Notes under the pieces: model-generated
Told to the model about the DNA's origin: nothing
The model's input: only the letters and a program-made list of their open reading frames with translations
Databases searched by the model: none
Part shown: piece after piece, positions 1 to 56,308 of the stretch
Layout of the letters: each line of letters begins with the position of its first letter
How positions within the stretch are numbered: position 1 is the first letter of the stretch
Origin: Marsupella aquatica
Taxonomy: Eukaryota; Plantae; Marchantiophyta
Assembly: GCA_973895155.1 (NCBI GenBank)
Contig: OZ316892.1
Coordinates: 19,011,457-19,075,456 of the forward strand
Direction: 5' to 3'
Length of the DNA: 64,000 bases
Position numbers and translations under genes: made by a program

Positions 1-106
1 ATTCAGGGAACGTACACTAAAAAACAAAGTTTACATGTAGGGACAGTACACTAAAAAATAGTACATAGTGTAGCATAAATTACATAGCTAGGCCATTCAT
101 TCTTAC

Positions 107-2281
107 CAAACGTTTAGCTGTCGGTGCAGTGCCGGTCCTTCCTGTCAGATTAGGGTTCTGAACACTCAACCTGGCCTCGGTCATCTGTGAACTCTTCTTT
201 TTTGAAGCATCTGTTACAAAATAAGCTACTAACCTTGCCCACACTTTATCATCACAACTGGCTGGTGGAGGCATATCTGGCTTCTCCCCACCTTCCTTCC
301 AAGCCTTATGCATTCTCCACCTCTCTTGCTTGATAATTTTACCTGCTGTACTCTCTAGGCAACCTATGTCCACGCCATCATCACTGCCCACATAATTCCA
401 TTTGGCAGCAACATTTTCACATACAGTCTTCCAATCTTTTGGATGCTGTTTTTTAAAATTAATAACACTCACATCTAACCAACGCAATACTTCAGCTTTC
501 AAATCAGCATGCCATCGGTTCTTGCGAGGACACTCAGCATCCACCCATTGTCTCTCATTCAACTTTACGTTCCCTTTCTTTGTCACCTCCCCTCGTGCAC
601 TGCTCTCGGTAGTACTGGGCGTTGTATTGGCCACCCCTTCATTCACCCTACCTGGGGTTCTGAAGCCACCTGGGAAAATACAATGCCATTCATGCTTGAG
701 AACTACATATAGCAGAATGGATGACGGCAACATTCAATGCTTCACTTCAAGAAAAATTCTTCAAACATACATACCTGTAGCTCTGCCTGTAGATGCCTGT
801 GCAGGGACTGCACTCTGAAATTGTTGCGACCCTGGACCACCTGTCCAGCCTAGTACAGGGGCCGGATGATGTCACTTTCTAGGTATGTGTGTGCAAACAT
901 ATGTACTGAAAACTAAGTACAAACTGTAGGAAAACAACTGAACATTCACCGACATACCTGTCCCCCTTCCGTGCTGCATCTGCATAGGGGCATTAGTGAA
1001 TACTTGAGTCGATGGTTCGACTGTCCAACCTGCACACATACATTTTCTATCATTATACATGTGCAGAGTCCCCCCCACGTGAATGGACTCCACATATAAT
1101 GAGTTCTTCCATTGCTGACAAGATCAGACATTACCTGCTCCTCTTCCAGCGTTTGTAGGTACTGAATTTTGATATCCCTGCCAATTACCTTCACCACCTT
1201 CCCAACCTTGTTCATTCCACGACCCACCACCATCCTCCCAACCTGGTTCAACCCATGTCTGTCCTTGTGGACATTGGAACTGATCATTACTAGCATTTGC
1301 CCAATCAGGTTGGGCAGAATCTGCATGCAATGGCAGGTGGACAGAATTTCATGTTGTCTGAATCCAATACATCCCAAACAATGTCAAAAATTGATATGCA
1401 GTCTGAAATTCAGGAGTGCCATGCCTTCACAAAGAACTGGCATATAGATATATACTCACATCCCCACGGTTGAGGTGGACGTCCATACCCACGAGATTGT
1501 GGGTTTGGACCTGCTCTGCCTCTACCACGGGCATAACCTAGAGCTTGCCCCCTGCCATAGTATTGGGCACCAGCCTGGGATCTACCACTACTACCACCTC
1601 GCCAACCTTGATCAGAGGTCAGCCCCCCCTGCTGGTATGGTGCATGCACAGGCTTCGAAGGCAAAACAGAACTGGCAGGACGCTGCATCACATCACCAAC
1701 TACAATGTCAGGAACTAAGCAAGGTACATATGTGTAGTACTGAACATATGAAACCTCTAAACAAGAGTTTTTAACTCAAAACCTTGTTGGGAAAACTACT
1801 TACATGTTTCTTTTGGGGCTGCTCTGCAATGTATTCATCTTCATAACCCCCATCCTCATCCATTTCCTCTGGAAAATACTCATCATCTGCATCTTCTTGT
1901 CTAGTGTCTGCACCCACCTGTGCAGCATCAATGTCATCTCCACATTCTGCCATTGTAGGTACGACCTTCTTGCTCAACCTGTCACTCCGACGCACAGGCC
2001 CAGAGATAGTGCTGGTCACCCTTCTTGCGTACTCCTTTTGTTTCTTTGAAAATGCTGTGGCTCTGCGACATTCCAATATGAGAATACAGTCACAATTTCA
2101 GTGCCACATTGAACTATTCATGTCACACAAACTCAGCGGAGGGGTGTAGTTGAGAATCGTTCCCTTACAATTCAGCCACATCCTTTTCCAGATCCAGTTC
2201 TGCGATTTTGGCTTTCACGTATGCTCGTTGTTCCATAGCTTTCCTTTCATACTCACACATCTCTGTGTCACTCTGTTCCAT
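107..2281 (-). CDS. CACTA TnpA/TNP1-like (Transposase_24-type) protein, multi-exon, 3' end outside the window
   Basis: The exon at about 107-670 has the Ptta/En/Spm-like motif W-x-x-LVAYF...KKSSQMTEAR...NLTGRTG and ends at a GTAAG donor at 106. Upstream there is a likely start exon (MEQSDTEMCEYERK..., ATG 2281), an acidic exon (about 1805-2070) and several short Gln/Gly-rich exons with canonical splice sites. Internal exon boundaries are approximate. Confidence 0.7.
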
Positions 2282-2437
2282 CCTACTGGACCACAAAAAC
2301 ATGTCATCTATGGTCACCCCGTATAACACAATGCAACCACAATCACCAGGCATCCATCCATACATCTGTGTTGCTTCAGAATTACTTTATTACACATCCT
2401 TCCCCTCACTAATGTCTATGCAAACAATTCACATTAC

Positions 2438-5400
2438 TCATGGCACAGGCACACTGTTGGCATCTGCATCTCTGAATTCGCCTCCTTCAGCAAATGCATC
2501 TACCCTTGTCACAGGAATGAAGTCCCCGCTATCATGAACTACAGGCACTTGGTCTGAACGCCGACGATCAAAGGCACTATGAGAGTGTAAATGAAACTCA
2601 AGGTTTGATCCTTCCATCCGGCGTTGCCTGGCCTGTTTATGACACACTACACGCCAACCTGGGGAGTCTTCCACATCCAGGAAGAAAGCTTGCTCCACCT
2701 GACTAGGAAACACAAATGGCTCAGACCATTCGGGCAATTTCCCTCTGAAATTGGCCAGCAAGAAACCGTCGTTGTCTCTCTTCATGGTAGCCCTGTTACC
2801 AAGCCAATCCTGCCGCACCCATGAACCTTTCATAAGAATCACAGGACTGGACACCGCCCCATAGTCCAGAGCCCATATGTCAACTAATTCTCCCACATAT
2901 CCCATCTCCATCCAGGCCCTGTCGTGATTGTGGCTCTGTTGCTCAAATACAGTGATGAGCCCGCAGTCATTCGTCACCCTGTAGGCACTGTCACCATCCT
3001 TCACTCGGAAGTGATTCCCATATGCTCTCATCCGTTTGTAAGTCTTCACTTTCAGGCTAGGGGCATTAGACAGTAGGTAAACATCTGCATCCATGTCTGG
3101 GTGGGTCTCGTGATGCTCTCTAATTGCCACTCTGATCCACTCCATGAAACCTGGAAAAGTTGTTCCTGCAGTGGGATGGGCCGCCTTCAATGACTCATAC
3201 TCCCTGAACGAACAACCACACAGCATTAGCTTGGGTAAACATGAACAGGCTGAAGGAGAAAACCACACGAACACAACATTTAAGCTCATGAACTGGATTA
3301 TAGCACATGTATGCACTCACTGTATCCAGGGTTCCATCACCACAGTGTTGTGCAATACAAAGTCATGTGCCAAGTCTCTCATAGATATGGTCAGGTTCTT
3401 TGTGGTTGCAGCCCCTTCCAGTACTTCACCTACCACCCCTTCCTCCTCATCAGAATTCCACACCCTGGTCTTCACATGCTCATATTGTGCTATGTATTCG
3501 GTCAGAAATCCCAGAGTCTCATCCTTGATGTAACCTTTAGCCATGCTTGCTTCAGGTTTGTAATATGTTCTCACGTGACCTTTGAGTAGCTTCATGTACC
3601 GTTCCAAAGGGTACAACCAACGAGCACTCACAGGCCCAAATTGGTGTAGCTCTTCCACAACATGGACAAGTAGGTGGGTCATGACATCAAAAAATGCGGG
3701 AGGAAAATAAATCTCCAGGTCACACAGCACCTGAGCGACATCTTCTGTCAGTTGTGGGAAGTGTGTTTCATCCCAAACCTTCACACAAATACGACGAAAC
3801 ACATCACTGAGTCGCATGATCACAGTACGAACAGGCTTCTGCAACAGGCCCCTCAGGCATAAAGGCAACACCTGTTGCATCAACATATGGTAGTCATGGC
3901 TTTTCATACTACCAAGCTTTCTAGTCATGATATGCTTCTTGAAAGCACTGCCATAGTTTGAAGGAACCTTCAAAGAACTCAACCTCTGCACAAATAGTTC
4001 CCACTCTGTGTCTGTCAGAACATAGGGCGCTTGGTACTTCAAGAGCACATCAGCTCTGTGGGCATGTGGCCTCAACCAAAGATGGGGTTTCATTCCCCTC
4101 TGTTCAAGATCCAATCTCACTGAACCAGTGTCTTTCTCTCCACACAAGAATCTGAGTAGACTCTCACAAATATTCTTTTCAATGTGCATAACATCAATGT
4201 TATGTTTGCTTGGCTCAAACTCCTGCATCGTTGCAATGCAAAAGCGTCAGGAAATGCCTCAAGTTTAGTCTCTCTCTTCGAAATGAATGCACATGCTCTG
4301 AACCAAAACATGTATCCCAATTAGCATCAACTCCAAGAGGCTTACCCTCCAGTACTTGAGCTCCAAGTCCAATATGCTCAGTCTTTTTACACCATATCGC
4401 TTTATTGGATCACTCACTCCATCTTCCCTGCCCCCTCGTTTGATATAGTCATCCCTCAGTGCTCCCCACTGCCTGATCTCCTCTTTGGTCACTCGTGCCG
4501 GGGGTCCACGTTGCTCAATCTCATTGCCAAAGTGTGCAATCAGTGCCTGTCTTTCTCTGTAAGGGTGATCTGTCTTCAGAAAACGACGATGGCCCATGTA
4601 TATCACTTTCTGCAGGGCTCTGGAGTACTCACTGGTGACATTGCGCCCACAGATAGTACAAGCACAATATCCTTTTGTTGTTTGGCCTGATATCATCCCA
4701 TGGGCTGGGTAGTCAGCTATAGTCAGAATGACAATGGCTCTAAGGATGAATGGGTTTAACCTCCCAAGCCTCTGTAGGACATCATATGTGAGAACTCCTT
4801 CCTCCCAAAGCTTTCTCAATTCCTCCACTAGGGGAGCCAGAAACACATCTATGTTGGCAGATACAGCACTGTCTGGCCCTGGTATCAGTAGGACCATCAG
4901 AACAAAAAATCGCTTTGTAGTCATCCAAGGAGGAAGGTTATAATTCAAAATAGTTACAGGCCAGCATGAAAATTTGTTGTTCTTGTCTCCAAATGGGTTT
5001 ACCCCATCCAATGACAGCCCAAGTCTGACATTCCTCGGCTCAGCAGCAAATTCGGGATACATCTCATCTATGAGTTTCCATTGCCTTGAATCTGCAGCAT
5101 GTCGTTGTAGCCCATCATCACTTTTCTTGTCAGTTGCCCAAGTCATCATCTCCGAGATGGCACGGCTTCTGAACATCCGCTGAAGTCTGGGAATGAGTGG
5201 AAAATGACGAAGTACCTTGGCGGGAACCATAGACTTTCCTGAGTTCCGATACCTGTGCTTCCCACACTTAGGGCATGTCAACGATTCTTTATACTCCTTT
5301 CTGAAAAGAACATGCCCATCAGGACAGGCATGGATCGAATCATAGTTCAATCCAAGATTAGATATGCATCTTTTTGCCTCGTACATGTTCTTGGGCAAAA

Positions 5401-6169
5401 TATTACCATCTGGTAGCACAGTTGTTCGCAAGAATGCCAACAACTCAGAAACCAAAACGTTGGGGACATTGTGGTTGCCGCAAATGTTCAGGAACATGAT
5501 GACAAATCCCAGTTTAGAACATTTGCTACCGGGGTACAAAGACTTCCTGCCTTCCTGTATTTGCAGGGGAGAGCCAAACATCCCATCATGCCCAGGGGTT
5601 TCCTGCCCTATCTCAAACTCATCAAGAGGCTCTTCGACAGGGGGCACACTTGCATCTGCAGCCGTATCCTCTTCATTGTCCAGCCCATCATGAAATGCAT
5701 CCAAGTCTTGGAAGATGTCTCTCACCATCTCTTCCACATGAATTCCTTCGTCACGTGGTGCTGCCTGAGCACCATCCCGTTGGAGAGCTGACAACCCACA
5801 GAGACCAGCTACAACATTTTCAAATGCACCAGGCAGAACCTCACTTGCCCGTCTTGCAGCATTGGCAGCATCAAATTCTAACCTCCACTCCTCGTCGGAA
5901 GAATCTTCCTCTGCAGGATCATTCCAAACTCGATGTCGTGGATCTCTTCCATGAACCGCGATATGCCGCCAAACCTCATTCAGACCCCTGGTACGGGATC
6001 CTTGGCAGATTGCACAAGGACATCTCATCCTACTGGCTCCTGAAAGTCTGGTTCGTAACCTTTCACGCTGCCAAAGCTTATTATCATGGCGTGATATCCT
6101 TGTGGGATGATGCAAAGGCAGTGCCTGTGCCCTGGGCTGGGTCTGGGGAGGGTGGTGACCAGGGTGCAT
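2438..6169 (-). CDS. CACTA TnpD/Tnp2-type transposase, 3 exons: complement(join(2438..3203,3321..4222,4346..6169)), about 1163 aa
   Basis: Motifs include N-terminal CPCAIC...H, YDSIHACPDGHVLF, CPKCGKHRY, LRHFPLIPRLQRMF, RNVRLGLSLDGVNPF, DYPAHGMISG, HNIDVMHIEKNICE, KSHDYHMLMQ, FFDVMTHLLVH, WLYPLERYMKLLK and EPFVFPSQVEQAFF. GT-AG introns at 4345-4223 and 3320-3204 join the three ORFs in frame with no stop. Confidence 0.93.
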
Positions 6170-6602
6170 TGTAACAGGCTGGGAGCTCTGCAGTCATGGA
6201 CAGCAGTGAACAAGGATGCCTAATGGTGGTATTTGTGTTCCATATATCCCTGACTGTATCTGCCAAAAGAGTTAACATAACGTGTACTAAATTCTCACAA
6301 ACCCTAAACCACCCCAAAAGAAAAAAACAGGTTCGCAAGTAGTGTACCTATTGTCAAGTGAATGACACAAAATTTCTAAATGTTGGAGGGTGTCACCACC
6401 TCCTCCGCTGTCCTCAAATGTACCGCCTCTGCATGTACGTTTACAGTGACACCCCCAGGCAGCAGGAAACAACAATCCGCCAACAGTAAAATAAGCCCAA
6501 CTGCCACCAACCATAACAAGGTACATTAGTTCAAAGATCACATTTATTTCAATGATCTGATTTATACAAAAAAACTTGTGTCCAAACTGATGCTACTACT
6601 CC

Positions 6603-7475
6603 TCACTCTGATTCAGAATCGCTAATGACCCATTCCTCACTTGTTGTCTCATAGTCCTCTCTGTAAGGATCCTGACCCTTCCGTGGCCAGGCCTCAAAAA
6701 GATCATAGTCCATTGGGTTTTGACGCTTCCCAGCTGCTACTGATTCCACAAGCCAAGCATATGAAACCACAAACACATTATGGGACATGACATAAAAGCG
6801 AATGTCTCCCTTCCCAAACTTGCGGCAGGCTTTGGGATATGACTTAGTAATGACATGAGTGGTGTCCTCTGTTATATTCTCCTCCACTGTCCCACCTAGG
6901 TCAAGCACTGTGGACTTGTACACTTTGCACTTAACCTCTCCAATTCCCGCCTCCACAAATACCATGCTCAGCCCTTTCAGAATGGGGGTTGGTTGCTTCG
7001 TCTCCTCAGCCAACATACTCTTCAGCCTTGTAGAGCTCTGTCCTTTGTTGAGTACAGGTCCATATTGGAGATCAGCAAGCCGTGCCTTTGCTTCCCAGAC
7101 TTCTTGTTCAGCCCAAGCTGATGCAGTAGCTTCTTCATCCTCCCACAACTCATATTGCTCAGTATCCTGTACAATCTTATGTGCTATGGAATCTGTGATC
7201 CAAGAGGCCTCAACTACTTTTAGGCCTTGCTTAGTAATTGCAGAATTCATGTAGGACCATGACCACTTCTTTATCACTGATAGCCATGTCCCTGCAACAA
7301 CATGTGTAGTCTCTGGAGTGATGTCCTGAACTACAGTGCCATGGAGCTCAGAGAATCGTTTCTGTACAGTTGGCCAATGCACTTTGGTCAACCCATGCTG
7401 GCCATGGACCAAAATCGCTCTGACCCCTGTAAACACTGCTGGGTGGTCACACTTTCTACGTTTACCAGGCTCCAT
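6603..7475 (-). CDS. Tandem BRCT-domain protein (two Pol lambda/PolX-like BRCT repeats), transposon cargo
   Basis: Intact intronless ORF of about 290 aa (ATG 7475). It has two repeats with BRCT hallmarks: FTGVRAILV...GTVVQDITPETTHVVA...SWITDSI...YEL and LKGLSMVFVEAGIG...LGGTVEENITEDTTHVIT...AWLVESVAAG...YDL. The C-terminal tail is acidic. Confidence 0.8.
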   Translation of the reverse strand: MEPGKRRKCDHPAVFTGVRAILVHGQHGLTKVHWPTVQKRFSELHGTVVQDITPETTHVVAGTWLSVIKKWSWSYMNSAITKQGLKVVEASWITDSIAHKIVQDTEQYELWEDEEATASAWAEQEVWEAKARLADLQYGPVLNKGQSSTRLKSMLAEETKQPTPILKGLSMVFVEAGIGEVKCKVYKSTVLDLGGTVEENITEDTTHVITKSYPKACRKFGKGDIRFYVMSHNVFVVSYAWLVESVAAGKRQNPMDYDLFEAWPRKGQDPYREDYETTSEEWVISDSESE

Positions 7476-8067
7476 GTACACACACCCTACGTGATGACAG
7501 TGAATTTTGGAAGAATGGGTTCACCTGACAATACAAGGACAACAAAATTCCTGCTTTTTGAGTTGATCTGGCCCACTGGTGCTCAGGTCCGATTTTGATA
7601 GGTACAAGGGATATGTGAACAATACGTACTAGGCACCTGCACGGATGCAGGACATTGTTTGAATATATACTACAAAATCCATATCCGTGGTGAAATGAAG
7701 TGCAACCAACTTGTCATGGCACATACATATTTTGTTGTAAAGGAGGATACATTCAATGACAAACTTATAGGGCAATTTGATTAATTGCATGCCTGATAAT
7801 TTATACGCTTACAACTTAGAAGTCCTGTTTTAATTTAGCAGTGTGATGAAAGTGTTTATGAAAATGACCACTCAGCCTAAATACTTCCAAGAAGGCTTGT
7901 AAGGATAAGTTTGTATAGGCATGTACCCAGCCACTGACGCCAGAGCACAAGATAAGTGCTGCCTATATAAACTCGCCTACCCAACTCCTTTTCAAAATTG
8001 GAATCTCTGCAATCTCAAAAAATAGTACATCCACATCAGGTGCACTGTGCATGTACAATGTTCAGCT

Positions 8068-8748
8068 TCACAGCCAAGATATGTGATCTCTCACAGGAGT
8101 GCGCGAGGTAGGATCAATGGCATGGCGATGACAATAAAATATCCATCGATCAACACCATGTGCAGAGTGATCATAGATTTCTCTGTCACAAGCATAACCC
8201 TCTGCTTGATGATCTTTCAGGCAATGATAGTGCCACATAGTGGGACACCTAGCACAGTGGACTATGTCAGTCCAGTAGTCATCATCATGCTCACCACATG
8301 CCTTGCACCTATGAAGTGGGCAAGCTGTGGCATGAGCAGGCAAACACTCAAAACAGAAAAATCTCACACAAAAACGGTCTGGACATTTCCTAACATTTGC
8401 TGCAGCATCAACAGAGCCCTCATAGGACCCCAACTTCCCACACTGTGCACACTTAGCCTGCTTCTCCAAACAATCAGTGCACATCCAGTCTCCCTGGTGT
8501 GTTGACGGGAGGCCCACCCCTGGACAGTTGTTTTCTGCAGCAAGGTCAGACTCCGGGTTGAGGTGGAAATGCCTCATGCAAGGGCCCTCACAAATGACCA
8601 GGCCCCCACCATCGTCACAAATGGCACAACAATGAGCTGCCTTCTGGAAAATCTGACTTGCAGAGAAGTTAGTAGCATCTGCCCCAAGTACACCTGTGTT
8701 TCTCACCTCTGTCACACGCTTTTTGGCTTGAATTTTAGGCCGTGCCAT
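8068..8748 (-). CDS. Stand-alone composite PHD-finger protein, EDM2-like, transposon cargo
   Basis: Intact intronless 226-aa ORF: CAICDDGGGLVICEGPCMRHFH...WMCTDC..KCAQCGKLGS...CPLHRCKAC...CARCPTMWHYHCL...IFYCHRHAID...TPVRDHI. This follows the order and spacing of the EDM2 PHD region as I recall it (CAICDNGG..CEGSCLRSFH...CPLHKC...CRRCPKSYHRKCL...IYCQEHEID...TPVRDHV). Confidence 0.82.
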   Translation of the reverse strand: MARPKIQAKKRVTEVRNTGVLGADATNFSASQIFQKAAHCCAICDDGGGLVICEGPCMRHFHLNPESDLAAENNCPGVGLPSTHQGDWMCTDCLEKQAKCAQCGKLGSYEGSVDAAANVRKCPDRFCVRFFCFECLPAHATACPLHRCKACGEHDDDYWTDIVHCARCPTMWHYHCLKDHQAEGYACDREIYDHSAHGVDRWIFYCHRHAIDPTSRTPVRDHISWL

Positions 8749-8759
8749 GCCTGCGCATG

Positions 8760-8903
8760 AGATAGACTCTACAATTTAGCAGACTGCACAGAAAGTAATA
8801 TATATTTAGCATTTAAGGTACAAAGGCATTTAGATAGACTCTACAATTTAGCAGACTGCACAGAAAGTAAAATATATTTAGCATTTAAGGTACAAAGGCA
8901 TTT
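8760..8903. repeat. 72-bp tandem duplication directly upstream of the PHD ORF
   Basis: AGATAGACTCTACAATTTAGCAGACTGCACAGAAAGTAA...AAAGGCATTT starts at 8760 and again at 8832, near-identical. Confidence 0.95.
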
Positions 8904-9518
8904 GCTACTGCAATGAATTGGAATGGCCACACAAGGATGCAGAGCACACATACTTTTGGTATGTTGAGCCCACACACAAAACTGATCCCCTAATACAATT
9001 TCTCCACCAACACCTCAATTTTAATTGTGGCTATGATTCACCAAAGGAGATCTGCAACAACATTTCATGCATTTGAATCACATACAATAGTCGTGACATG
9101 TAAAACAGGCATTCTTCGAAGAGGATTGGTATGAAGTAGTGTCATAAGGGTTGAAATTTATACATCCTAAATAGGTTATGATAGTGGCTGAGACAAATAA
9201 GTGAGGCATAAATCATTTTGCATATTATCACATGGCCCATTAATTCATTCAACGTTGCAATGTTCACCAGGTTAAAGCAGTCATGAAAGCAGTCTTTCAA
9301 TAGAGACTTTTATGCGAGTTTGCTAGCCTCTTAAATTAGGATATTTTGCTTAGTGCAGGCATAATAGGATATAAGTTATATACTGTTGACCCTAAACCCT
9401 GGACCCAAAATTGCTCATACATCAAAATTTTAAGTAAATATCCTCTGTGTTGAAGTCAGAGTGTTAAGCTATAGGTCAATGGTATCTGGTCTGTGCATGC
9501 GGTGTGACAAGTGGTCCT

Positions 9519-9968
9519 CTAGAGCATGTGATCCAAACATGTGTAGACACCAAAGTCACCGGTGGTGGGGTCTGGGAGGGCAGGACAAGTGACATCACCA
9601 GGCACACTGCAGGATGGCGAGTGGTTCCAAATGATACATTGTGCTCTATGCAAAAATCGGCATCCAAGAGAACGGTCATCCAATTCTGGGCCAGAAGCCC
9701 TACAGGCAGGACAGTCATATTGGCAACTGTGTACACACCCTTGGCACCTAATTTGTGGCGGGTCATGTACAAGAGACACAAATACCAAGGATGTCGGGAA
9801 GGGTACTGAAGCAAGTAGAGGCCGGCTGTAGTTGTTCCTGGAAACAACAGGGTACTCAAAGTACCATGCAGACTGGGCTGGAAGGATCCCAAGTCTGACA
9901 TACTCAAGGCGCAACATCTCTGCCTTGCGTGCAAGTCGCACATGTTCAGCGTTGCGGGTCCTCACCAT
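9519..9968 (-). CDS. Small Cys/His-rich putative zinc-finger (divergent PHD-like) protein, transposon cargo
   Basis: 149-aa ATG-initiated ORF co-oriented with the other cargo ORFs. It has a basic N-terminus (MVRTRN..RLARK) and the ligand pattern CQGC..CQYDCPAC...CRFLHRAQC...CLDH. Confidence 0.5.
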   Translation of the reverse strand: MVRTRNAEHVRLARKAEMLRLEYVRLGILPAQSAWYFEYPVVSRNNYSRPLLASVPFPTSLVFVSLVHDPPQIRCQGCVHSCQYDCPACRASGPELDDRSLGCRFLHRAQCIIWNHSPSCSVPGDVTCPALPDPTTGDFGVYTCLDHML

Positions 9969-10962
9969 AAGTGTTGCTTTTGTTGTGATGTCCTCTGTTC
10001 ACGTCCTTTGATGAGCAAGGTGAGCAGGAGGTCGACTTGCCTCGCCAACAGCAACCACCTAAACTAATCAGTTCCCACTCAACTACAGGTCATAGTATAC
10101 ACATAGCATGAAACGTGCATAGTACATATTTGATTCTGAGTTTATGAGTTTCCTAAGACAAAGAGCTTGGTGATAAACCCATATTCTCGATGGACATGTA
10201 TATCAATCGTATTAAAATCCTGTTTTTTCATCCAGAAAGACCGAAAGTCTCACCTTGCAGGTTGCAGCAGAGAGAAAATTCACTGGTTGTCGTGTTGTGC
10301 AAGTGAACCTCCACTGATGCCCCCGGTGTAGCCCCTCAGATGCAGGTGACACTTACCAACTCCCAAGTTGCCTGGTCTAACAGAAAATGCTTATATCTTC
10401 AGAACTTTATAGAGCAAGTACATGATCACATACTTCTGGATCTATTCATATTTGGAACTCTTGCCAACTACAACTCCCATTATGCACAAGCTCACATCAA
10501 CAGAGAAAGATACAGAATGCATACTTACTAGGCTCTAAGCACCTTCACTACCTTGTTGAACCCAGTCCTGAAGTCTTTTCAGCGTGTTTGTTGTGCTGTC
10601 TCCTTTGGCACCCAACACCTTAGTCCTTGATGTAACAGAATGCAATTTTACAAGTTAGATGCTTTGGAACCTTCTATGGTCTTAGCTGAATTGATGTCAT
10701 CGTAAGTGGTGAAAGACAAGGAAGACGAAAGCTGGTTGAAGAGCTGTAGACAACACACTAGCATGAAGTGCTTCAACCAATCCACTGCCAAACGGAACTC
10801 TTACACAGTCACATTCTTTCAGTAAACAGAAACTCAGTCAAACTTTATAATCAAAGTACAGACTCTGAAGGACCAAAGGAGGATGTTGTGAGTTTCTCTG
10901 TTGTTTAATGTGTTACCCTTCTAGTTTCGAAGTTAGCAAATGCTGAATAATGTGTCTACCAG

Positions 10963-11304
10963 ATCTTCGAAAAGAAGCCCACCACAATTAAGAACTTCGG
11001 TATCTGGGTGAGGTATCAGAGTCATACAGGTTATCCCAACATGTAGAAGAAATATCGTGATACCACATTGAACATCGCTGTAGAGCAGATGTATGATGAG
11101 ATGGCTTCTTGTCATAGAGTTCGGTTCCCTTGCATCCAGATCATCAAGACTACGACAGTCCCTGTCTCTCTGTGCAAGCGAGAAAGTACCAAGCAGTTCC
11201 ATGATTCAAAGATCAAGTTCCCCTTGACGTACCGCAAGATTCAACCTCCATCGCGAAAGCTAAAGACGACTTACAAGGCCACCAAGCCCAACACATTTGT
11301 TTGA
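10963..11304 (+). pseudogene. RPL18A: Captured 3' exon of 60S ribosomal protein L18a (eL20), inactivated
   Basis: Translates [62 protein letters not shown]...[29 protein letters not shown]. There is an in-frame TAG at 11044-11046. It is preceded by an acceptor-like CTACCAG, and I found no N-terminal exons. Confidence 0.92.
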
Positions 11305-12942
11305 GTTTCTAGGTCAGGATGCTTAATATAAGGAAATTCAATTTTCACTTCGTTCCCAGCTTCTACTAATTGAATATACACGAGATGGAAGCAAGAAGAT
11401 AAGCCACAATCTAGCATCTTAGCCAAACACATTCGTCCCGACAAAGCAAAACTACAATCACACAGTGCGAGTTGTGTCTGCACCGGCACCCCCAGTGAGA
11501 CTGATCAGCATTTGGACTGCATCATTGTCTAGAGCTAGCAGTGGAAGGAATCAACATAGCTAGCAGTGGAAGGTGCAGTGGAGATAGCATGGGGACAGGG
11601 AAGGAAATGCAGGTTCCTTAAGCATAAATTTCCAAAAATGGAACAACAGGAAATGAAGAATAGGCACTGAAGCGGTCAACTAGACAAACGTTGTAACAAG
11701 GCAGCAAGCATTGGATTAAGAAGAAGCAAGGTTTCATCAGCAGAAGCAAGGTTTCATCAACAATGGCATTGTGAGACAAACCACTCCTTACAAATTTCTA
11801 CAGACATCCTCCCCACTTGCAGCTTCTCGGCCAGGCTGGATTTCTTGTAAGACAGGTTTCTTGTAAGAAAGATTTCTTGTTTGGTGAGGAAAGATCAAAA
11901 AGCAACTGATCAATGCCTTCTTGTCATCTAGAAGAGCTGGATGCAGCCCTGTCTCACATTTAATGTTAAACTGAATGAAAGACATTATGCGCATGCACAA
12001 AAGAAAGACATGAATATAATTAAGGTAGGTTTTAAGGAGCGGAGTCAGCAGTCAGACTTAGAAAGTTCAAATTGAAGCGCCATTAGTTTGGCGTGGTCAA
12101 GAGTAAATAAATGTTGGTCAGGGATACTCACCTCTTTTGAATGTATTACTGACTCAGCTAAGCCCAGCTAGACAGAAGTCACTCAGACCCACAAAAAAGT
12201 GAAGATCCACCTCCAAGCCGGAGCTCTATCACTTCAGTAGAGCAGCTTCTGGACGGAACCAACTCTAATCAGCCCCACAGAACACAAATGTTAAGGCTCC
12301 AAGTCAGAGCTCACTTCAGCCGAGGTGGACATCGCAGCTAGACCATTCAGTATAGGCAGTATGGAGCCTGAGACTACGCTCATTGTTCAGAATTGAGGTG
12401 ATGAAAGTGAGTTGGCATCAGTGGATACAATGAGAGGGGAAAAAATTCTGACCAAATCACACCTCTATAATCAGAGAGGTTCTATTTCCAGGGAACTCAT
12501 TCATTGACCAGAGTAATATGGCCCACATTTAATTAGACTATGATAGACTCTTCCTCTGCAGACTCAAACTCGAGGAACCCCCACGGATGCCAGCATATAC
12601 ACGAGCTAGAAGCAAGAACACAAGTCGCAATCTAGCATCTTGGCCAAACACATTCTTCCTGGCGATAGTAACTGCAAGCAAGGGGGAGACAGGGAGAACA
12701 AGGAGAATAGGGAGGCAACTCACAATGGAGCTAGGTAGCTCATGATCAAGCAACTTGCAATTGCAGCAACAGTAGTCTTAGTAGCAAGCGATTGAGCTCC
12801 AGGAAATGACAAACCCGCAGCTGAGTCCTCAACTGACAAAATGTTCGCCACTCGACCCTCCTTCCAACTGCAACCGCCAGATAGTAGGAATAAGATAGAG
12901 AGGTTGCAGCCTTCTCAGTGATCCAATAGCACCTCTCTTACC

Positions 12943-13200
12943 ACCTCCGCTCTTAGCACATCCGCTCGCACCTCCGCTCTCAGCACCTCCTTTGGCACCT
13001 GAGCCGCTCTCAGCACCTCCGCTCGCACCTCCGCTCTCAGCACCTCCTTTGGCACCTGAGCCGCTCTCAGCACCTCCGCTCGCACCTCCGCTTGCACCAC
13101 CTCCTTTGGCACCTGAGCCGCTCTCAGCACCTCCGCTCGCACCTCCGCTCGCACCACCTCCTTTGGCACCTGAGCCGCTCTCAGCACCTCTGCTCGCACC
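12943..13200. repeat. GC-rich 57-bp tandem repeat (about 4.5 copies) in the CACTA 5' region
   Basis: TTTGGCACCTGAGCCGCTCTCAGCACCTCCGCTCGCACCTCCGC... recurs at 12991, 13048, 13105 and 13162. Confidence 0.95.
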
Positions 13201-14494
13201 GCCGCCCAAACTGAAGCTACGTAGCAATCCTCAGCAGTGTGTGACAGAAGCACTCCACTCCAGCTCCACTCCGCTCGAGCTCCACTCCAGCTGCTCTCCG
13301 CTCGTAGCTCCTCGGCCAGACCGGCGGCCAGAGCAGCTCCCAAATTGCAGCTCCTGCCCGCCCACAGCTCCTCCCAGTCCTAGAGCTCGTCGTCCACTGC
13401 AGCTCACCTCTCCACTCCGCAAGCCGGTCGCCCTCTCAGCTTGAATGCTCTAGAGCTTTGAAGGTAAACCTTCAAGCTCCAAGCACAAAACTCCCCTACG
13501 CGAAGGAACTGCCCCGATCACGAAGCACACTCCCCACTTTGTGAGACCACGCACAATGTGACAACCTTCAGGCACGACGAATGTCCCCGTAATGGACAAG
13601 TGAGTTTTTCTGAAACAAAACCCTCCGAGTTCCCACGCACATTGAACTGAACTTTGCATTCTGCTGGCGTGTTTAAACCCTAAACAAAACCCGCGCACCC
13701 TAAACTCGTGTCCAAAGGCACACTCCCGCACAAAGCATACCTTAACACTTAGTGACACTTAGTGAACCAAACCCAATGAGCCTCGACCACTTTGCGTTGA
13801 CATGAGCCGTTGATACACATGTTAGTACCCTAAAGCAAATTGGACACGACACTTTGTGAGCAAAGATTAAATGAACGCAACTGTAACCTCTTAGAACGCA
13901 ACTGTAAATTAACCCTTACACATGCCACTTAGGGAGGGTGGACAAAGAATGGGGGCCAGACACTACTTTAGCCCTGAATTGAAAATGATATCACCCCAAT
14001 ATTCTTGTCAAAGTTGCCCATGAACTCTAAGGAATCCATTGAGCAGCATAAGACTTACTATTATAGAGGCAAGTACTCCCATGCACGTTTAATTAGGCTA
14101 GCTAGGATAACTAGCTACAATGCTCTTGACATGAAGACATTTAACTAGTTCTGCAACCCTAAACCCCCATTCCTTCTATGTGCACCTAGTGCTCCCGACT
14201 CCGCAAGTTGCAAGTCAAGGGTTGTAAATGGAACATTCCGTGATGTCTAGAGTGCATGTAATCCTTCTTGCACTCTATTTCAGAATGCCGTAATGGAGAG
14301 TAGCTTATTCAACTTACATATGACTGCCCTACTAGTGTTACAATTGCTACTTTATCAGAAGTTGTAGGAATGACTTTCACAAATATCCCCCAAAAATCAG
14401 TTGATAAAATGTAACAACAATGACTCCCCTAAACTTGGAGTCATGTATTTTTGAAAGTCTCCCTAAAGTCACAAAGCATAGGGTCTCAAAAGGG

Positions 14495-14511
14495 GACGTT
14501 TTCTTCTAGTG
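14495..14511 (-). repeat. CACTA terminal inverted repeat (5' terminus)
   Basis: Plus strand GACGTTTTCTTCTAGTG is the reverse complement of CACTAGAAGAAAACGTC. Short GACACTT/CCACTT motifs cluster subterminally at about 13745-13970. Confidence 0.8.
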
Positions 14512-14915
14512 TGAGAAAAATATGTGAAGATGAGGAAAAGATGTTGAGGGTGAGGGAAAGATGTTGTGGTGAGATAAAAATGTGAAGTTGAGAAATAGAT
14601 CAGATTTCGAGGTGAAAACAAATATCAATGACAAAAAGAGATGTTGAGGTGAGACAAAGAAGTCAAGGTGATGTTGAGGAGAGAAAAAACATGGCGAGGT
14701 GAGAAAATGACGTTGAGGAGAGAAAATATGTCGAGGGTGAGGGAAAGATGTTGTGGTGAGATAATGATGTCAAGGTGAGAAAAGATGTCAATTCAGGTGA
14801 GAAAATATATCAAGGACCTAAACGATGTTGAGGGTGAGAAAAAATTGTCATGAGATAAAAATGTCAATGTCAGAAAAAATGGCGAGATGAGAAAAATATG
14901 TCAAGGCAAGGTAGA
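14512..14915. repeat. Purine-rich minisatellite (about 19-21-bp unit, GAGAAAA..ATGTTGAGGT-like) abutting the CACTA terminus
   Basis: Degenerate tandem copies such as gagaaaaatatgtgaagat, gagggaaagatgttgtggt and gagaaaatgacgttgagga. Confidence 0.85.
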
Positions 14916-16992
14916 GTTGTTGTGGTGGTGTGCAACAACTCGTGCACTGCACATAGAAATTGGAGGCTAAGATAATAGTCACCGCAACATAGAGTCCAAG
15001 CACAACCAAGTGATAGAAAAAATTATTTTAAAATTTAAATTTTTAGAGAAATTAATATCATATATACATTATTAATACTCAAGTTTTTTCAAACTTTAAA
15101 GTTCTTATCCAATTCTTTAAGTCTCAATTTGAATAATTATTTTTTAATAATATTCAATTTTTTATTTTTTATCTTGGTTGGGTTGAGGTAGGTTATGGGT
15201 AGCTTGGGCAGAGGTAATCCAGATTAATAGAGATATGGATGGATCCTACATTTACAGAAAAACAAATTTTTACTTAAGACCTAGGATTGTTCCCATTTTT
15301 TCTTGAGTTTGTAAATAGTACCATATCCATTTTTAGAGGATATGGTATATCACTTATGATACTCTTGCATACAACTGGGTTAGGTACATTTTTGTCTTTT
15401 GTTCCCACGTTATATTCTTTTTTGTGTGAAAAGTGCATGCAACAGGGTTAGTTACATTTTTTGTTTTTTGTGTACACCAATTGATTACTGTTTGTGTGAA
15501 AAGATTTACTGTACTTTTTGGTTAACACTATATTTAATTTGCTTTTGGTTTTATCCCTTCTATTTATTGGTTACTTCTTTTCTTGGCACTGTATTTTTGA
15601 ATGACGACCACTGCATAAAAAGGCGCAACCTTGTATTATAGTTCTTGATAATGCAAGCAACTCTATGAGTATTAGTCTATGTTGATATTCTCCAACTATA
15701 TCATCAATGTTTTGTTAAGAAGATGTTGCCTCATTAAAACCCTCTCATACTCCTGAGCTGAGAGAAAGAGTACAACCACCTTTTACAGATGTAAATCTAT
15801 CATATGGTAGTAATTATGAGTGTCTAATTATATACTCAAAGTTTAGACAGTTTTCTAATGCCAATACCTTGACAGTGAACTTGGTGTGTGTTGTTGGAGG
15901 TAAAGCCTTTGTAAATAAGTCAGCATGATTATCCTTGCTCGCAATTGCCTTTATGTTGATGTTGTCTCCTTCTTGCTCATGAGTGAAGAAAAACTTTGGC
16001 GCAATGTGCTTGATCCTGTTGCCTTTGATTTTGACACCTATTCAACACATGCAAGGTTGTCTTTGAATAACACTGTGGGTTGGGTTAATGCTGGTAACCC
16101 ACAATTACTATTAATATGGTTAATAATTCTTTGTAACCATATGCATTCTCGACTTGCTTCATATAATGCAATTATTTTGGCGTGGTTTGATGAAGTGCAA
16201 GTTAGAGTTTGTTTCTAAGTGCTTTTCCATGATATTGTTGTAGTTCCGTATAAAAATACATATCCAGTCTGAGATTTGGCATCATCGGGGTCGGATAAGT
16301 TACCAGCATCTGCATATCCTGTTAATGTCAGACCAATGTGATTAGGGAAATATGTCCCATATCAACAGTTTGTTTTAGATATCTAAAAATTTGTTTAACT
16401 CCATTCCAATGGCGTATAGTGGGTTGTGCACTATGTCAAGCCAACAAGTTCACGGCAAAAGAGATGTTGGGTCTGGTCGGGGGTCTGGTTTGGTTAGCTA
16501 AAAACATTAAGGCTCCAATGGCCAATAACTAAGGTTTCTCTGGTCTTTGTGCGTTTTTGAAATATGTCTTTATCTTGATCAAGAGATCGTATCTCCATTG
16601 GAGAGGTTACAGGATGTGCAGAGTCCATATGAAATTGTTTAAATATCTTGGTGGTATAGGTACTTTGGTGTAAGAGTATGCCATTGTCCAAGTGTTCAAA
16701 TTGTAGACCTAGACAGTAGTGGGTTTTGCCCAAGTCTTTCATTTCAAATGATCTGGTTAGCATGTCAAATGTATGTTTAATTAACATTGTGTGTCCAAAT
16801 AGGTTTATATCATCAACATATATGGTGACGAAGATGAATTCTTTATCTTGGTTCTTGATGAATAAGCATGGTGCTATATCTTCATTTATATATCCCATTT
16901 GTAACATCTTGTCTCGAAATCTCTGGTATCACATTCTTCCGCTTTGCTTTAGTCCATATAAAGATCTCATGATTTGGACAACATATTCATCC

Positions 16993-24777: not shown

Positions 24778-27285
24778 ATTTTTATTTTATTTTAAATTAA
24801 AAAAAATTAATGAAGGGAGGGGCAGGCCCCATCAATTAACACCGGAGGGAAAACCTGCCCGGGCAAAAAGACAGAGCAAACACACAAGGAGAGAAGGATG
24901 CCCTAGCTAAGCCCTCCCCTCCCAACCACCAGCCAAAGCCAGCCGCAGAGATCAGTATATCCGTGCCTCATTTCACTAGAAACCAGCCTATGCTCCATTC
25001 TAGTAGAATTAGTTCTATTCCTATGTCTCCTAAATCTACTGTTGTCCTTCAATTGGTTAGAGAGGTGGCTGTTATCCAATAATCCACCATGTCTACTCTG
25101 AACGAACAGGTTAGTTCCATGTGGGCTCGACGACAGAGTCCCACCCAGCCCCGGGTCAAGCACCAAGAGCAGCCAGCTGATTTCATACTCACTCATCATA
25201 GATACCATTATCAGTGTCCTCGACCATTCCCGTCTGTTCCACGATTGGGAGGATGTCCATCAGCTCATGAAGGGTTCTCATGATCTGCCTACTCTTCTTT
25301 GGTGAACTACTGGAGCTAATCATGTGTCTAAGATGTTGTTCAGTCCTATGCAGGATCTCCCTAATCGGGATTTTCCCTAGAGTCTGGTCAAAATGCATTG
25401 CGTTTGTTCCAGAAAACACTGCACATTTCCTTGATCACAATCAGTGGGCCAGGGTTAGTTTTCTGTTTTCTCATTGCATGTTTGATCATTTCCATGAGCC
25501 CCCCCTGCCCCAAGGTCAATCGACGAGTCTTCGAAGTGCTAAGTTGATGCAGAAGTTGCCATCTATGCTGCACATGTGTGCAGCTGAAGAACAGGTGTTT
25601 TGTGGTCTCAGTTTGGGCCCTGCAGCTTTGACACACACCAAAGCCTACCCCAAATTGGTGAAGAACCTCGGGGGGCCGGGGGGGGGGGGGTTGACTATAA
25701 AAAATCTTAGGAATCACGTGCAATCCAAAATATGTATTTTTCATAGAAGTTAGCAAAATTATTAAAAAGCGTAGGAAGCAAAAGAATGCATTATAAACCC
25801 ATATTTGTAGAATATTCTCTAATATATATCTTTTTAAAAGTAAAATATGTCATTAATATTGAAAATAGAGAATAGTTTTTGAATAACATGAATATTCAAA
25901 AACATGAATATTTATAACATGAATGTTCAAAAACCAACGCCCATTAGGATCTCTGAGATCACATAGGGATCAAATTTTCTGATTAGCCATGAACCTGCGG
26001 AGGGCGACCTTGTTTTCATCCCCCAGATTGGTTGACCTGAAATACAGCAGGAGGGTCTGTTCAATCGAGAGCTGTCCGGGAGCTTGCCCCGTCCAAAGCC
26101 AAACTTCAGGAAGGCAGCCTGAGCATCCCATCCTATAAGAAGTGCTCTCAAGGTGGGTGTACCAATCACTTTTAACGACAAGTTCAAGAGGAGCGCCTCC
26201 GGTGGCGTCCAATTGTGCCGTTCCTTCTTGTCTGGTCCAAAGCTCAGGGATTTCCTGATGACAACGTGCGAAAGCTTCACCCAGTCCACATCCGTATTCA
26301 TGATCAACTTCATCACGTGTCTCATCTTAAGTGCCTGGGCTTGCACATTGAACGGGAGGATGCCCAGACCTATCGCTCTCCTCTCTTGAGTGATTGTTTC
26401 CCAACTGTTTGGGGGTAACTTATTATCCCATTCTTGAAGTGCCCCAAAGAAAATTGCGGCTAATCTGCTCCATCTCTTCAGAACCAGCCTGATTTAACAA
26501 CAACATAAGGTGGTAAGTAGGAATGGCCCTAAACATGTGTCTAAGCAGGATTGCTCTACCTGGTAGAGTCAGACTCATTACACACCCAGTGGTTAAGCTT
26601 CTTCCTCATTTTCCCTACTAGAAACCTAGTTTCTTGGGAGGGCATAATCAAATGCCCTATATAGGGCAGCCCAGGTACTCACTGAGTTCACCAGGTCTAG
26701 TGACGACACATCCTGTCCCCTACATCCACTCAAGGTCACTCGGGTCAGATGAGAATCGGGGTATAATTTTAGATTTGTGCACATTAAGCAAGGCCCCCAA
26801 AATTCGTTCATAGTGGTGTATAACCCGTCTGGCAGCCTGAAATTCCTGCTGACAAGCCACTCAAAAAAGTCATTTATCATCAGCAAACAGTTGGTGGCAT
26901 GCAGCGGATCCATCATCCAAAGGAAGCCTGTGTAGTTCCTGGGTATTGAGTTTTTGCTTAAACATCAGCATGAGAGGTTGGGTGGTCAACTCAAAAAGCA
27001 GAGGGGCCAGAGGGCATCCTTGACAAAGTCCCCTTTTCAGACAGAAAGATCGCGTGAAGAGCCCATTGTTGTGGACCTTGGACTGGGTGTTTTTCACCAG
27101 GCCCCTAACAAGCTTGATCACCTACCTAAAGAAATTCATCTGTTTGAGCACCTCCCAAAGGAAGTTGTGTTCAACCCTGTCGTAAGCTTTGGCAAATTCA
27201 AGCTTTAGGAACGTCAACGGTTTTTTATTGAGTCCTGACAAGTCTTGAGCAAGTTTGAAAGTCAGCAGGTTGTCCGTAATGTCCC
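24778..27285 (-). mobile_element. 5'-truncated, decayed L1-type LINE
   Basis: RT motifs RGLCQGCPLAPLLF and HQLFADD (26870-27121) and a zinc-knuckle CQSC...ETTKHLFFSCTHV (about 25570-25650). A T-rich tail on the plus strand is at about 24778-24794. Confidence 0.88.
25667..25930. mobile_element. Truncated end of a CTCGGGG-family TIR element inserted in the LINE
   Basis: CTCGGGGGGCCGGGGGGGG..GACT...TCACGTGC followed by AT-rich sequence interrupts the LINE coding region. No second TIR was seen. Confidence 0.5.
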
Positions 27286-41100: not shown

Positions 41101-41623
41101 CACCCTTGTGTGCAGCGACCAGAGCAGATCCTCTCTGGCCACACATATCGACAAAACTGTTTACGGAAGCTTTGTCACCGTCTTGGCAACGGAAACCGAA
41201 CTCTCTATGCGTGTTCTGGTGAGTACAGCTGATTCAAAGTCAACTACTTTTCTGGAATTGACTTGGTTTCAGCTGTAAAATCACTCTTATGACTGTTATG
41301 AGGATAGTTCTCCTTTCGGACGATCCAGACCCTAGTTTATTCAATTTAACATTTTTGTAATCTGTAGTAACTGGAGCCTGTTCTTCTGATTTGCGTCGAA
41401 TTGTCCCTCATATTTAATGGGCTGTTTTGACATGCAGGTGGATCATTCCATTGTGGAGACCTTTGTGCAAGGCGGTAGGCAGGCGGTGACATCAAGAGTC
41501 TACCCCACGCTAGCTCTCAACGAGAATTCACATCTCTTCCTCTTCAACAATGGAAGCACTCCTATCCATGTTAAGAACTTGGATGTGTACCAAATGAACG
41601 ATGTGCATATGATCACGATTTGA
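38129..41623 (+). CDS. Vacuolar-type acid invertase / beta-fructofuranosidase (GH32), join(38129..38531,38793..38801,39419..40323,40518..40679,40898..41218,41438..41623), 661 aa
   Basis: FHFQPEKNWMNDPNAP, WGHAVSTDL, WSGSAT, FRDPTT, MWECVD (Val, vacuolar type), YASKSFYD and VDHSIVE. The N-terminus has a dileucine EIEAPLL and a transmembrane segment. All introns are GT-AG and the exons join in frame. Confidence 0.95.
38793..38801 (+). other. 9-nt mini-exon ATCCCAATG encoding the DPN core of the invertase NDPN motif
   Basis: Context is ...tgtcaacag ATCCCAATG gtgagc... It supplies the residues missing between WMN (exon 1) and APMYY (exon 3). Confidence 0.95.
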
Positions 41624-55600: not shown

Positions 55601-56308
55601 TCGGTAAGCATCCTCCCTTTATGGCTACCCACACTGATGCATATTCCAAAGTACAACGCCCTAACCTAGCTTGGATGGGTATACTTTGGGCTTTCAAGGC
55701 AAAAAAACAGAAGCAGCAGAGGAACATCGATTATATTAGTGATTGTGAAATCGTAGAGTGTGGTCGCCACGAATTCATAACGTACGTGGGAAGGTTGGGA
55801 TTCTCTACCCTGTTAAGAGACCATCATTGGCCCGTTTGGAAGTGAGCAGTGATTTCAATGCTGGATGAAGACAAGTAGGCAAAGGATGTACTGCCTCTCC
55901 GAGCGGCGGAGAAGGATGGTGTGATGATTGTATGGCAATTGAGCCTCTCTCCTCAGCCGGTCAACAACAAGCCAATTCGGAGCTCGTTGTCGGGAGTGGG
56001 AGAATCGGATCGAGCATCCTCCGTCTCGGTGGGGATCTCTTTCCCCTCGTTTCGTTTTGTTGCCTTTGCCACACGACAAAGAGCCCTCCTTTCTGTCGGC
56101 GGTTCTTGCTGCGAAGATGACTATTCGTCACAAAGCAGAATCTAGCAGAGTAGTGTTTTTTCAATTCGTCGACATCGAGCTTCACGGAGTGTCTCCTCGA
56201 AGACTGGTGTGAATTGGGGAAGTTGGACGAGCTTCTGCGCTAATTTCGTTTTTGGTTGAGGAGAATTTGAGGTTGAAGCGTTTTTGTTCGTCTAGCAGAG
56301 GAGTAAGA

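Follow-up and report, generated by a model that had tools for sequence, protein, structure and literature searches.

Accessory genes on CACTA and related transposons

Chromatin-related cargo has been described on several members of the EnSpm/CACTA superfamily. Giant Plavaka elements of red algae carry the PAG1-3 cassette (10.1101/2025.02.11.637652), and fungal EnSpm, ESTA and Plavaka elements carry a TET/JBP gene (PMC12730594); elements of the EnSpm superfamily that bear several chromatin genes as a cassette have been described before, and accessory-gene cassettes are known on this superfamily from both red algae and fungi. Among plant transposons, counter-silencing by a protein has been proven in few cases, VANC and TnpA among them.

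Here we analysed a window of 64,000 nucleotides from the liverwort Marsupella aquatica that contains a CACTA/EnSpm element with three accessory open reading frames (ORFs). As in the red-algal Plavaka elements, an EnSpm-superfamily transposase is accompanied by three accessory genes for which roles in chromatin have been proposed, one of the three being of unknown function. The PAGs are enzymes (adenine methylase/SET, 2OG oxygenase), whereas the genes carried here, for a PHD module, a protein with two BRCT domains and a protein without known family, encode nothing catalytic and belong to an element of the canonical plant TnpD/TnpA type. No Pfam match to the SET/methylase or 2OG-oxygenase accessory genes that mark the Plavaka cassette was found among the three ORFs and 25 small frames of the region at E up to 0.1. 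The fungal TET/JBP elements likewise belong to the CACTA clade and have an accessory gene proposed to act against methylation silencing; in contrast to the present locus they carry one enzyme gene, which moves between lineages, and the terms PHD and BRCT do not occur in the accessible part of that paper (PMC12730594). Like the VANDAL elements of the Arabidopsis Mutator superfamily, our element has a separate ORF whose likely source is a chromatin regulator of the host, a MAIN-like one in the case of VANC and an EDM2-like one here (PMC13547354, PMC12973397, PMC6446971, each in part). Superfamily and donor differ, and anti-silencing by VANC is experimentally shown while that of the present case is putative. 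Angiosperm CACTA/Spm elements, with TnpD, TnpA and Peptidase_C48, share the TnpD domain order, captured fragments 5' of the coding region and, putatively, a Transposase_24 gene downstream, as far as the excerpts of these sources go (PMC8978399, 10.64898/2026.08.24.746577).

An earlier note on this DNA knew of no description of the combination of cargo genes. In the openly accessible literature we found no description of a CACTA element with PHD finger and BRCT cargo; the combination may be new, but chromatin cassettes on this superfamily are not, two reports having already documented them (10.1101/2025.02.11.637652, PMC12730594).

Anatomy of the element

The window holds the 5' part of a CACTA/EnSpm element, the far end of which lies beyond it. 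The terminus (14499..14511, minus strand) reads CACTAGAAGAAAA, ends at 14511 and begins with CACTA, as CACTA/EnSpm termini do; the same 13-mer recurs once in the window, at 62673. Outside the junction at 14511 the base composition changes to a degenerate A/G-rich tandem repeat. Inside it, the subterminal region (13600..14498) contains four copies of CCCTAAAC, at 13678, 13698, 14157 and 14427, which are likely to be protein-binding repeats, and is followed by a GC-rich, CpG-rich region of 57-nt tandem repeats (12890..13450) that lacks a Pfam domain; neither this repeat nor the 25 small frames in 6084-13758 yielded a convincing domain. No inner CACTA matching the terminus at more than 9 of 13 positions was found in 6170-14510, and internal termini and long inverted repeats were absent within 6200-14500.

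The TnpD transposase gene (2438..6169, minus strand; exons 6169-4346, 4222-3321 and 3203-2438) yields a protein of 1163 aa without a stop once two GT-AG introns of 123 and 117 nt are spliced out. Its domain order, Transpos_assoc, Transposase_21, DUF4218 and DUF4216, is that of CACTA/EnSpm transposases, the Pfam matches to the first and last of these being below cut-off. The spliced model has the motifs of this class, namely CxxC at 504, HxxxH at 791 and the residues D388, D486 and E815, which we take to be the acidic residues of the motif rule. The rule itself is set out in the accessible part of PMC12730594. Downstream lies a multi-exon TnpA-like gene (80..2282, minus strand; open exons 2282-80, exon model provisional) with a weak Transposase_24 match (E 1.5e-4, below cut-off), which probably continues past the window edge. 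With TnpD intact, the element is not a non-autonomous Pack-CACTA lacking transposase. Its one captured host gene fragment is a 3' piece of RPL18a (10963..11304, plus strand) with an intron-type acceptor in front, 5'-truncated and interrupted by a single premature stop at 11044-11046, so that this capture is indeed dead, as had been proposed.

The three accessory ORFs, 9519-9968 (149 aa), 8068-8748 (226 aa) and 6603-7475 (290 aa), each start with ATG, are stop-free and lie on the minus strand, together with the terminus, spliced TnpD and the TnpA-like gene. Gaps of 770, 592 and 433 nt separate ORF 1, the PHD ORF, the BRCT ORF and TnpD in turn; host genes elsewhere in the window have introns and are widely spaced. 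Coordinates, frames and splice model therefore bear out the proposed arrangement of a CACTA end, an intact transposase and three stop-free, co-oriented ORFs.

Three short motifs are common to the spacers (6301..10226). AAAACAGG occurs as a single copy upstream of each of the four genes (6324, 7824, 9102 and 10219), CCCTAAAC lies in spacers at 6302 and 9390 as well as in the subterminal region near 14511, and GTATAAAT is found on the coding strand at 6560, 7799 and 9156. These motifs, found post hoc, connect the spacers both with the end of the element and with the sequence upstream of TnpD (control P 0.010 for each in post hoc tests), and both links occurred together in 1 of 3000 controls. That the ORFs belong to the element, as the earlier note proposed, thus draws support from signs that are internal or indirect: the lack of an inner terminus, the common motifs, and a family containing both intact and broken members.

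The candidate accessory genes as proteins

All three ORFs have full-length relatives in the same frames, at 37-82% identity, in unannotated assemblies. One relative was found among 147 pattern matches in metagenome contigs, and none in viral contigs (four queries) or prokaryote genomes (two queries), which is unsurprising for plant DNA. No relative of any ORF was seen beside a transposase or another cassette gene, the sole relative with DNA being a 1867-nt sequence, L001. In a neutral simulation the chance of remaining stop-free was 0.0005 for the BRCT ORF and about 0.05 for ORF 1, an argument that is inflated since protein searches preselect intact ORFs. Taken with the relatives and with the saturated synonymous sites of the PHD gene, the simulation supports selection on the ORFs as proteins, which refutes both their confinement to this copy and their neutral evolution. 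The related claim that structural residues are kept holds for the PHD ORF; for the Cys/His and BRCT ORFs, retention above background was not measurable.

The PHD ORF (8068..8748, minus strand) encodes a stand-alone EDM2/NSD-type module of 226 aa, matched by Pfam as NSD/EDM2-type PHD fingers (E 5e-5, below cut-off). It shares the atypical, NSD-like PHD module of Arabidopsis EDM2, as portrayed in the available portions of PMC7529245 and PMC3632883, and matches the EDM2-like proteins of liverworts in its pattern of cysteines and its C-terminal motif. Unlike those long multi-domain proteins, it consists of the module only, without RFD or methyltransferase-like domain, with a shortened second finger, without the acidic patch and without introns. 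Five of 123 candidates proved to be full-length relatives (82-37% identity), and its Cys, His and Trp residues are retained above background in 11 of 11 relatives. Over 194 codons shared with L001, pS is 0.82 (saturated) against a dN of 0.60, and identity is 32% at third positions versus 59-60% at the others; the PHD gene is thus selected as a protein. In a tree of 77 rows, built by quick search only, 16 stand-alone rows separate from 61 host-type rows on a branch of 1.34 (SH-aLRT 98). By its sequence, the gene belongs with other stand-alone genes to a distinct family that goes back to the EDM2-type module. The family is old and diverse.

None of the 18 stand-alone clusters looked up bears an organism name, while all five long matches looked up are annotated host genes. 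An annotated host gene of the short form was not found among the clusters looked up, despite matches to EDM2-like genes of Marchantia, Riccia and Calypogeia. Among 24 hand-picked family proteins, eight are full length with the same short form and seven depart from the profile early into unrelated sequence; the L001 gene has a stop close to its 5' end, and its similarity to the window is confined to the PHD ORF. Such a mix of intact and broken members is to be expected of mobile, multi-copy genes.

Among solved sequences, the first finger comes closest to readers of the histone H3 tail (AIRE, E 2.5e-4). In readers of this type an acidic patch before the first Cys binds unmethylated H3K4, according to the part of PMC3241642 available. 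Acidic residues in the four positions preceding that Cys were found in 0 of 17 scored family members versus 76 of 79 host-type matches, and the family therefore lacks the signature of AIRE-type H3K4me0-reading fingers. With this cluster lost in every scored member, the proposal that the protein reads heterochromatin marks is weakened and finds no support at the residue level.

The BRCT ORF (6603..7475, minus strand; 290 aa) contains two BRCT domains (Pfam, E 2e-13) that share 24% identity and are connected by about 50 aa of linker, and has an acidic tail. Two of 1261 candidates are full-length relatives (60% and 54%). BRCA1-type phosphopeptide-binding tandem BRCTs are two tightly packed domains with a conserved Ser-Gly pocket; in the three sequences compared here, what we presume to be the Ser of that pocket is variable (H/P/S). 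The domains presumably resemble the N-terminal BRCT of plant DNA polymerase lambda, and no polymerase chains were present among the PDB matches (35 and 34). An Atlas search returned generic BRCT clusters only, under 0.9, and the predicted structure was unusable (pLDDT 36). Engagement of end joining, as the earlier note had it, is putative, being drawn from the BRCT label alone.

ORF 1 (9519..9968, minus strand) encodes 149 aa, a putative Cys/His finger protein for which no Pfam family was found. Its CxHxCx3Cx2C cluster is invariant in all three aligned sequences, and two of 23 candidates are full-length relatives (56% and 54%). Overall Cys/His retention was 12/18 compared with 72/126 and 69/128 (p 0.2-0.3). 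The predicted fold (pLDDT 60, best Z 4.0) has no bearing on fold novelty, and Foldseek gave no match at E up to 0.001. An overlapping frame of 155 aa (9476-9943) was set aside because the relatives fit the 9519-9968 frame.

Proposed roles and competing explanations

The anatomy and the conservation at the protein level are established, as is the derivation of the PHD module from the EDM2 type. The three ORFs are likely accessory genes of the element itself, tampering with host silencing and repair, and we give a probability of roughly 60% to an intact CACTA/EnSpm element whose three conserved genes act as follows. Each would have a short promoter of its own in the spacer. Being a cut-down and reshaped EDM2 module without the other EDM2 domains or the acidic H3K4 patch, the PHD protein would most likely intervene in the EDM2 pathway, whether as decoy or as adaptor. 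This pathway controls silencing and the processing of transcripts where transposon sequence is marked by H3K9me2, and element transcripts may in this way still be made within silenced chromatin. Where TnpD makes breaks, the protein with two BRCT domains, which lacks a catalytic part, would most likely dock on repair proteins of the host, and the ORF 1 protein is probably a small zinc-binding partner.

It is rather doubtful that the genes serve targeting instead of anti-silencing, the PHD protein tethering the transpososome to chosen chromatin, in the manner of the RAG2 PHD with the Transib-derived RAG1, and the BRCT protein passing the ends to repair. The closeness of the first finger to histone H3 tail readers and the tandem repeat adjoining this CACTA copy would fit, as would the occurrence of RAG2-like Kelch-PHD genes on Transib-superfamily elements (PMC4411706, in its available part), but the acidic H3K4 patch is gone. 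This explanation has the same accessory-gene core as the one we prefer and differs in the PHD step only. We also regard it as unlikely that the genes are cargo roaming as a cassette, or a nested transposon of some other family, carried within this CACTA copy and selected elsewhere: in red algae and fungi accessory genes do shift from one transposon family to another, as the sources available in part relate, the PHD family is old and diverse and the flanks of L001 are unlike the window, yet there are no internal termini or long inverted repeats, the ORFs are on the TnpD strand and tightly spaced with it, and motifs of their spacers recur near the terminus and upstream of TnpD.

Pack-CACTA-type capture, in which the ORFs would be lineage-specific host genes, selected in the host, acquired as recently as RPL18a and due to decay, seems to us a poor prospect. 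The element did capture host DNA, and CACTA elements pick up gene fragments 5' of the coding region (PMC8978399, accessible portion); against this, three whole, intronless, co-oriented genes contrast with a single broken antisense fragment, the short PHD form has no annotated host gene among the clusters looked up, and its broken relatives are many. Chance open frames or an assembly join are highly improbable. When the 8.3-kb region was resampled with a first-order model, ORFs of 149 aa or more arose at a rate of 0.06 per run, so ORF 1 alone is short enough to arise in this way, and 500 runs yielded no ORF of 226 aa or more; the full-length, same-frame relatives of all three ORFs refute chance frames.

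Beyond the preferred reading, and as a speculation that we hold only tentatively, a plant CACTA lineage, probably of bryophytes, may long have carried a conserved, non-enzymatic kit of three host mimics, with a rewired EDM2 PHD decoy undermining either RNA processing or the silencing linked to heterochromatin, and a doubled BRCT of the repair-polymerase type steering end joining at excision and insertion breaks. The accessory genes are small and intronless and hence easily expressed, and the absence of the acidic H3K4 patch from all scored members raises a sharp biochemical question, namely what a transposon-reshaped EDM2 module binds. A selected, EDM2-derived PHD family together with a repair-domain protein on an intact CACTA element would bring two new host pathways into the conflict between transposons and their hosts. 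If the three-gene kit is real, no plant transposon before this one would have been shown to act on silencing as well as repair through dedicated genes.

Anatomy of the element and its surroundings

On the minus strand, a CACTA terminus (CACTAGAAGAAAA) that ends at 14511 is followed by a mostly non-coding stretch of about 4.5 kb, by three ORFs with ATG starts and without stops (ORF 1, 9968-9519; the PHD ORF, 8748-8068; the BRCT ORF, 7475-6603) and, beyond these and on the same strand, by the transposase TnpD (2438-6169) and a multi-exon gene. After splicing of two GT-AG introns, the transposase is a stop-free protein of 1163 aa with Transpos_assoc, Transposase_21, DUF4218 and DUF4216 domains in the usual order, and C(2)C and H(3)H motifs are present between its acidic residues, the motif rule being taken from the available text of PMC12730594. 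The multi-exon gene (80-2282) has a weak Transposase_24 match and is TnpA-like, and the plant carrying it is probably not a flowering plant; TnpA-like proteins are apparently restricted to flowering plants, according to the accessible part of one preprint (10.64898/2026.08.24.746577).

Past 14511 the composition switches abruptly into a degenerate A/G-rich tandem repeat (14512-14950), the apparent insertion site, and the far end of the element lies beyond the window. No inner terminus-like CACTA was found, the 10 other CACTA words in 6170-14510 agreeing with the 13-base terminus at no more than 6-9 positions. An exact CACTAGAAGAAAA terminus recurs at 62661-62673 (minus strand), within a local duplication of about 96 nt downstream of IspG; this second copy has no convincing partner end within the window and is probably left over from a related family. 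The telomere-repeat-like CCCTAAA(C) motif occurs between 6301 and 14434, with all element copies on the plus strand; a link to telo-box-binding proteins is possible. Two near-perfect 72-nt tandem copies (8760-8903) abut the PHD start codon on its upstream side.

The RPL18a piece (10963-11304, plus strand), a host fragment inside the element, is an ordinary DNA-level capture; comprising the 3' part only, preceded by an intron-type acceptor and bearing one premature stop, it is dead, as the earlier note held. Just after it, 65-nt direct repeats (11374-11438 and 12595-12659, 88% identical) enclose 1.2 kb and may mark capture or a nested insertion. The rest of the window holds two host genes with introns, of GH32 invertase type (38123-41278) and IspG/GcpE (~56300-61280), and degraded reverse transcriptase fragments of Copia and LINE type (16494-16907, 25388-26493, 48218-48595). 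This content marks the host as a land plant, and the liverwort majority among the named PHD matches (see below) makes a bryophyte likely.

Coding status of the three ORFs

Judged by sequence comparison, the three ORFs are genes, and the comparisons show selection on their proteins. Full-length relatives were recovered from unannotated assemblies for the BRCT ORF (2 of 1261 candidates, 60% and 54% identity), the PHD ORF (5 of 123, 82-37%) and ORF 1 (2 of 23, 56% and 54%). The three stop-free ORFs on the transposase strand between the CACTA end and TnpD, described in the earlier note, are confirmed. Over 194 codons compared between the PHD ORF and L001, a relative on a metagenome contig of 1867 nt, synonymous sites are saturated (pS 0.82), dN is 0.60, and identity is 32% at third positions against 59-60% at first and second positions. 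In simulations of neutral drift down to the identities seen, 1 of 2000 runs left the BRCT frame without a stop, against about 5% for ORF 1; because the relatives came from searches favouring intact frames, which biases this test, the stop-free evidence is strong for BRCT and suggestive only for ORF 1. The latter matched no Pfam family, and a search with its predicted structure gave no fold match. A CxHxCx3Cx2C cluster is invariant in all three aligned ORF 1 sequences, C, H and W are not conserved above background overall, and 'finger' would be a guess.

The PHD family and probable carriage by the element

A PHD profile built from six relatives matched 564 proteins; among the best 150 of the 564, the top matches are short stand-alone proteins, and lower in rank are host proteins of EDM2-like type, several of which also contain an RFD domain. 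A tree from a quick search, covering 77 of the 146 module-covering sequences (all 22 short and the first 55 long), split 16 stand-alone rows from 61 host-type rows (branch 1.34, SH-aLRT 98) and singled out no particular donor among those 77. Of the 18 stand-alone clusters that were looked up, none is labelled with an organism (for one, NCBI is given as source, without accession), and all five long matches looked up are annotated genes, from Marchantia, Riccia, Calypogeia and Artemisia, with liverworts accounting for four of the five. Among 24 hand-picked family proteins, 8 are full length, 7 part from the profile early and run on into unrelated residues, and the other 9 are incomplete or ambiguous; the L001 gene is intronless and has a stop close to its 5' end. 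Being under selection, containing numerous broken members and lacking an annotated host locus, the family would fit, by this indirect route, the pattern of mobile genes.

The short flanks of L001 have no match to the window, and further scans for relatives, in viral contigs and prokaryote genomes, were blank. Within the window, AAAACAGG has five copies, four of them lying one each upstream of ORF 1, PHD, BRCT and TnpD, and CCCTAAAC has eight, four at most 850 nt from the terminus and two in the spacers that precede PHD and TnpD. For these motifs, picked post hoc, 3000 random draws of stretches from the DNA around the element reproduced each pattern about 1% of the time and both together in one draw. 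These internal signs point to the terminus, the ORFs and TnpD as one unit, and we put the probability that the three genes are borne by the element at roughly 0.6.

Known accessory genes and proposed roles

The window element shares with the red-algal Plavaka elements both the EnSpm superfamily and the possession of three accessory genes; the Plavaka genes have chromatin-enzyme domains and form a cassette that transfers between families, as far as the available text reports (10.1101/2025.02.11.637652), whereas the plant TnpD/TnpA element here pairs a double BRCT with a stand-alone EDM2-type PHD. According to the passages available from the respective sources, TET/JBP is carried by fungal EnSpm elements (PMC12730594), VANC of Mutator likely originated from a host chromatin regulator (PMC12973397), and PHD fingers are known in Rehavkus transposases and RAG2-like genes (PMC4411706, PMC6446971). 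Given these cases, the general kind of accessory-gene element is already known. The present cargo on a plant TnpD/TnpA was not found in the literature searched, and is absent from the accessible texts of two CACTA surveys (PMC8978399, 10.64898/2026.08.24.746577).

How the accessory genes act in the element is something that we infer. For the first PHD finger, the best alignments are to readers of the H3 tail, AIRE among them, and in fingers of this type unmethylated Lys4 is held by a cluster of acidic residues ahead of the first Cys, in the portion available of PMC3241642. This cluster is kept in 76 of 79 host-type matches and, by pattern scoring, is missing in all 17 scorable members of the PHD family, a uniform loss which argues that the family has been reshaped. 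Such a loss does not demonstrate that histone binding is gone, yet it takes away the ground for assuming EDM2-like mark reading, and the proposal in the earlier note that the PHD protein reads heterochromatin marks is not supported at residue level. EDM2 itself is described, in the available parts of PMC7529245 and PMC3632883, as binding H3K9me2 chromatin at transposon sequence and controlling polyadenylation and silencing there; a PHD module without EDM2's other domains would best fit a decoy or adaptor.

The BRCT protein has two BRCT domains of 24% mutual identity, joined by a linker of about 50 residues, with weak, generic matches only against PDB (Rtt107, BRCA1, ligase IV). Its second domain may be similar to the BRCT domain found in plant DNA polymerase lambda. 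If this likeness is true, it would matter, because LIG4 and XRCC4 are binding partners of the polymerase lambda BRCT and this polymerase has been linked to excision-site repair, according to the available text of PMC4444747.
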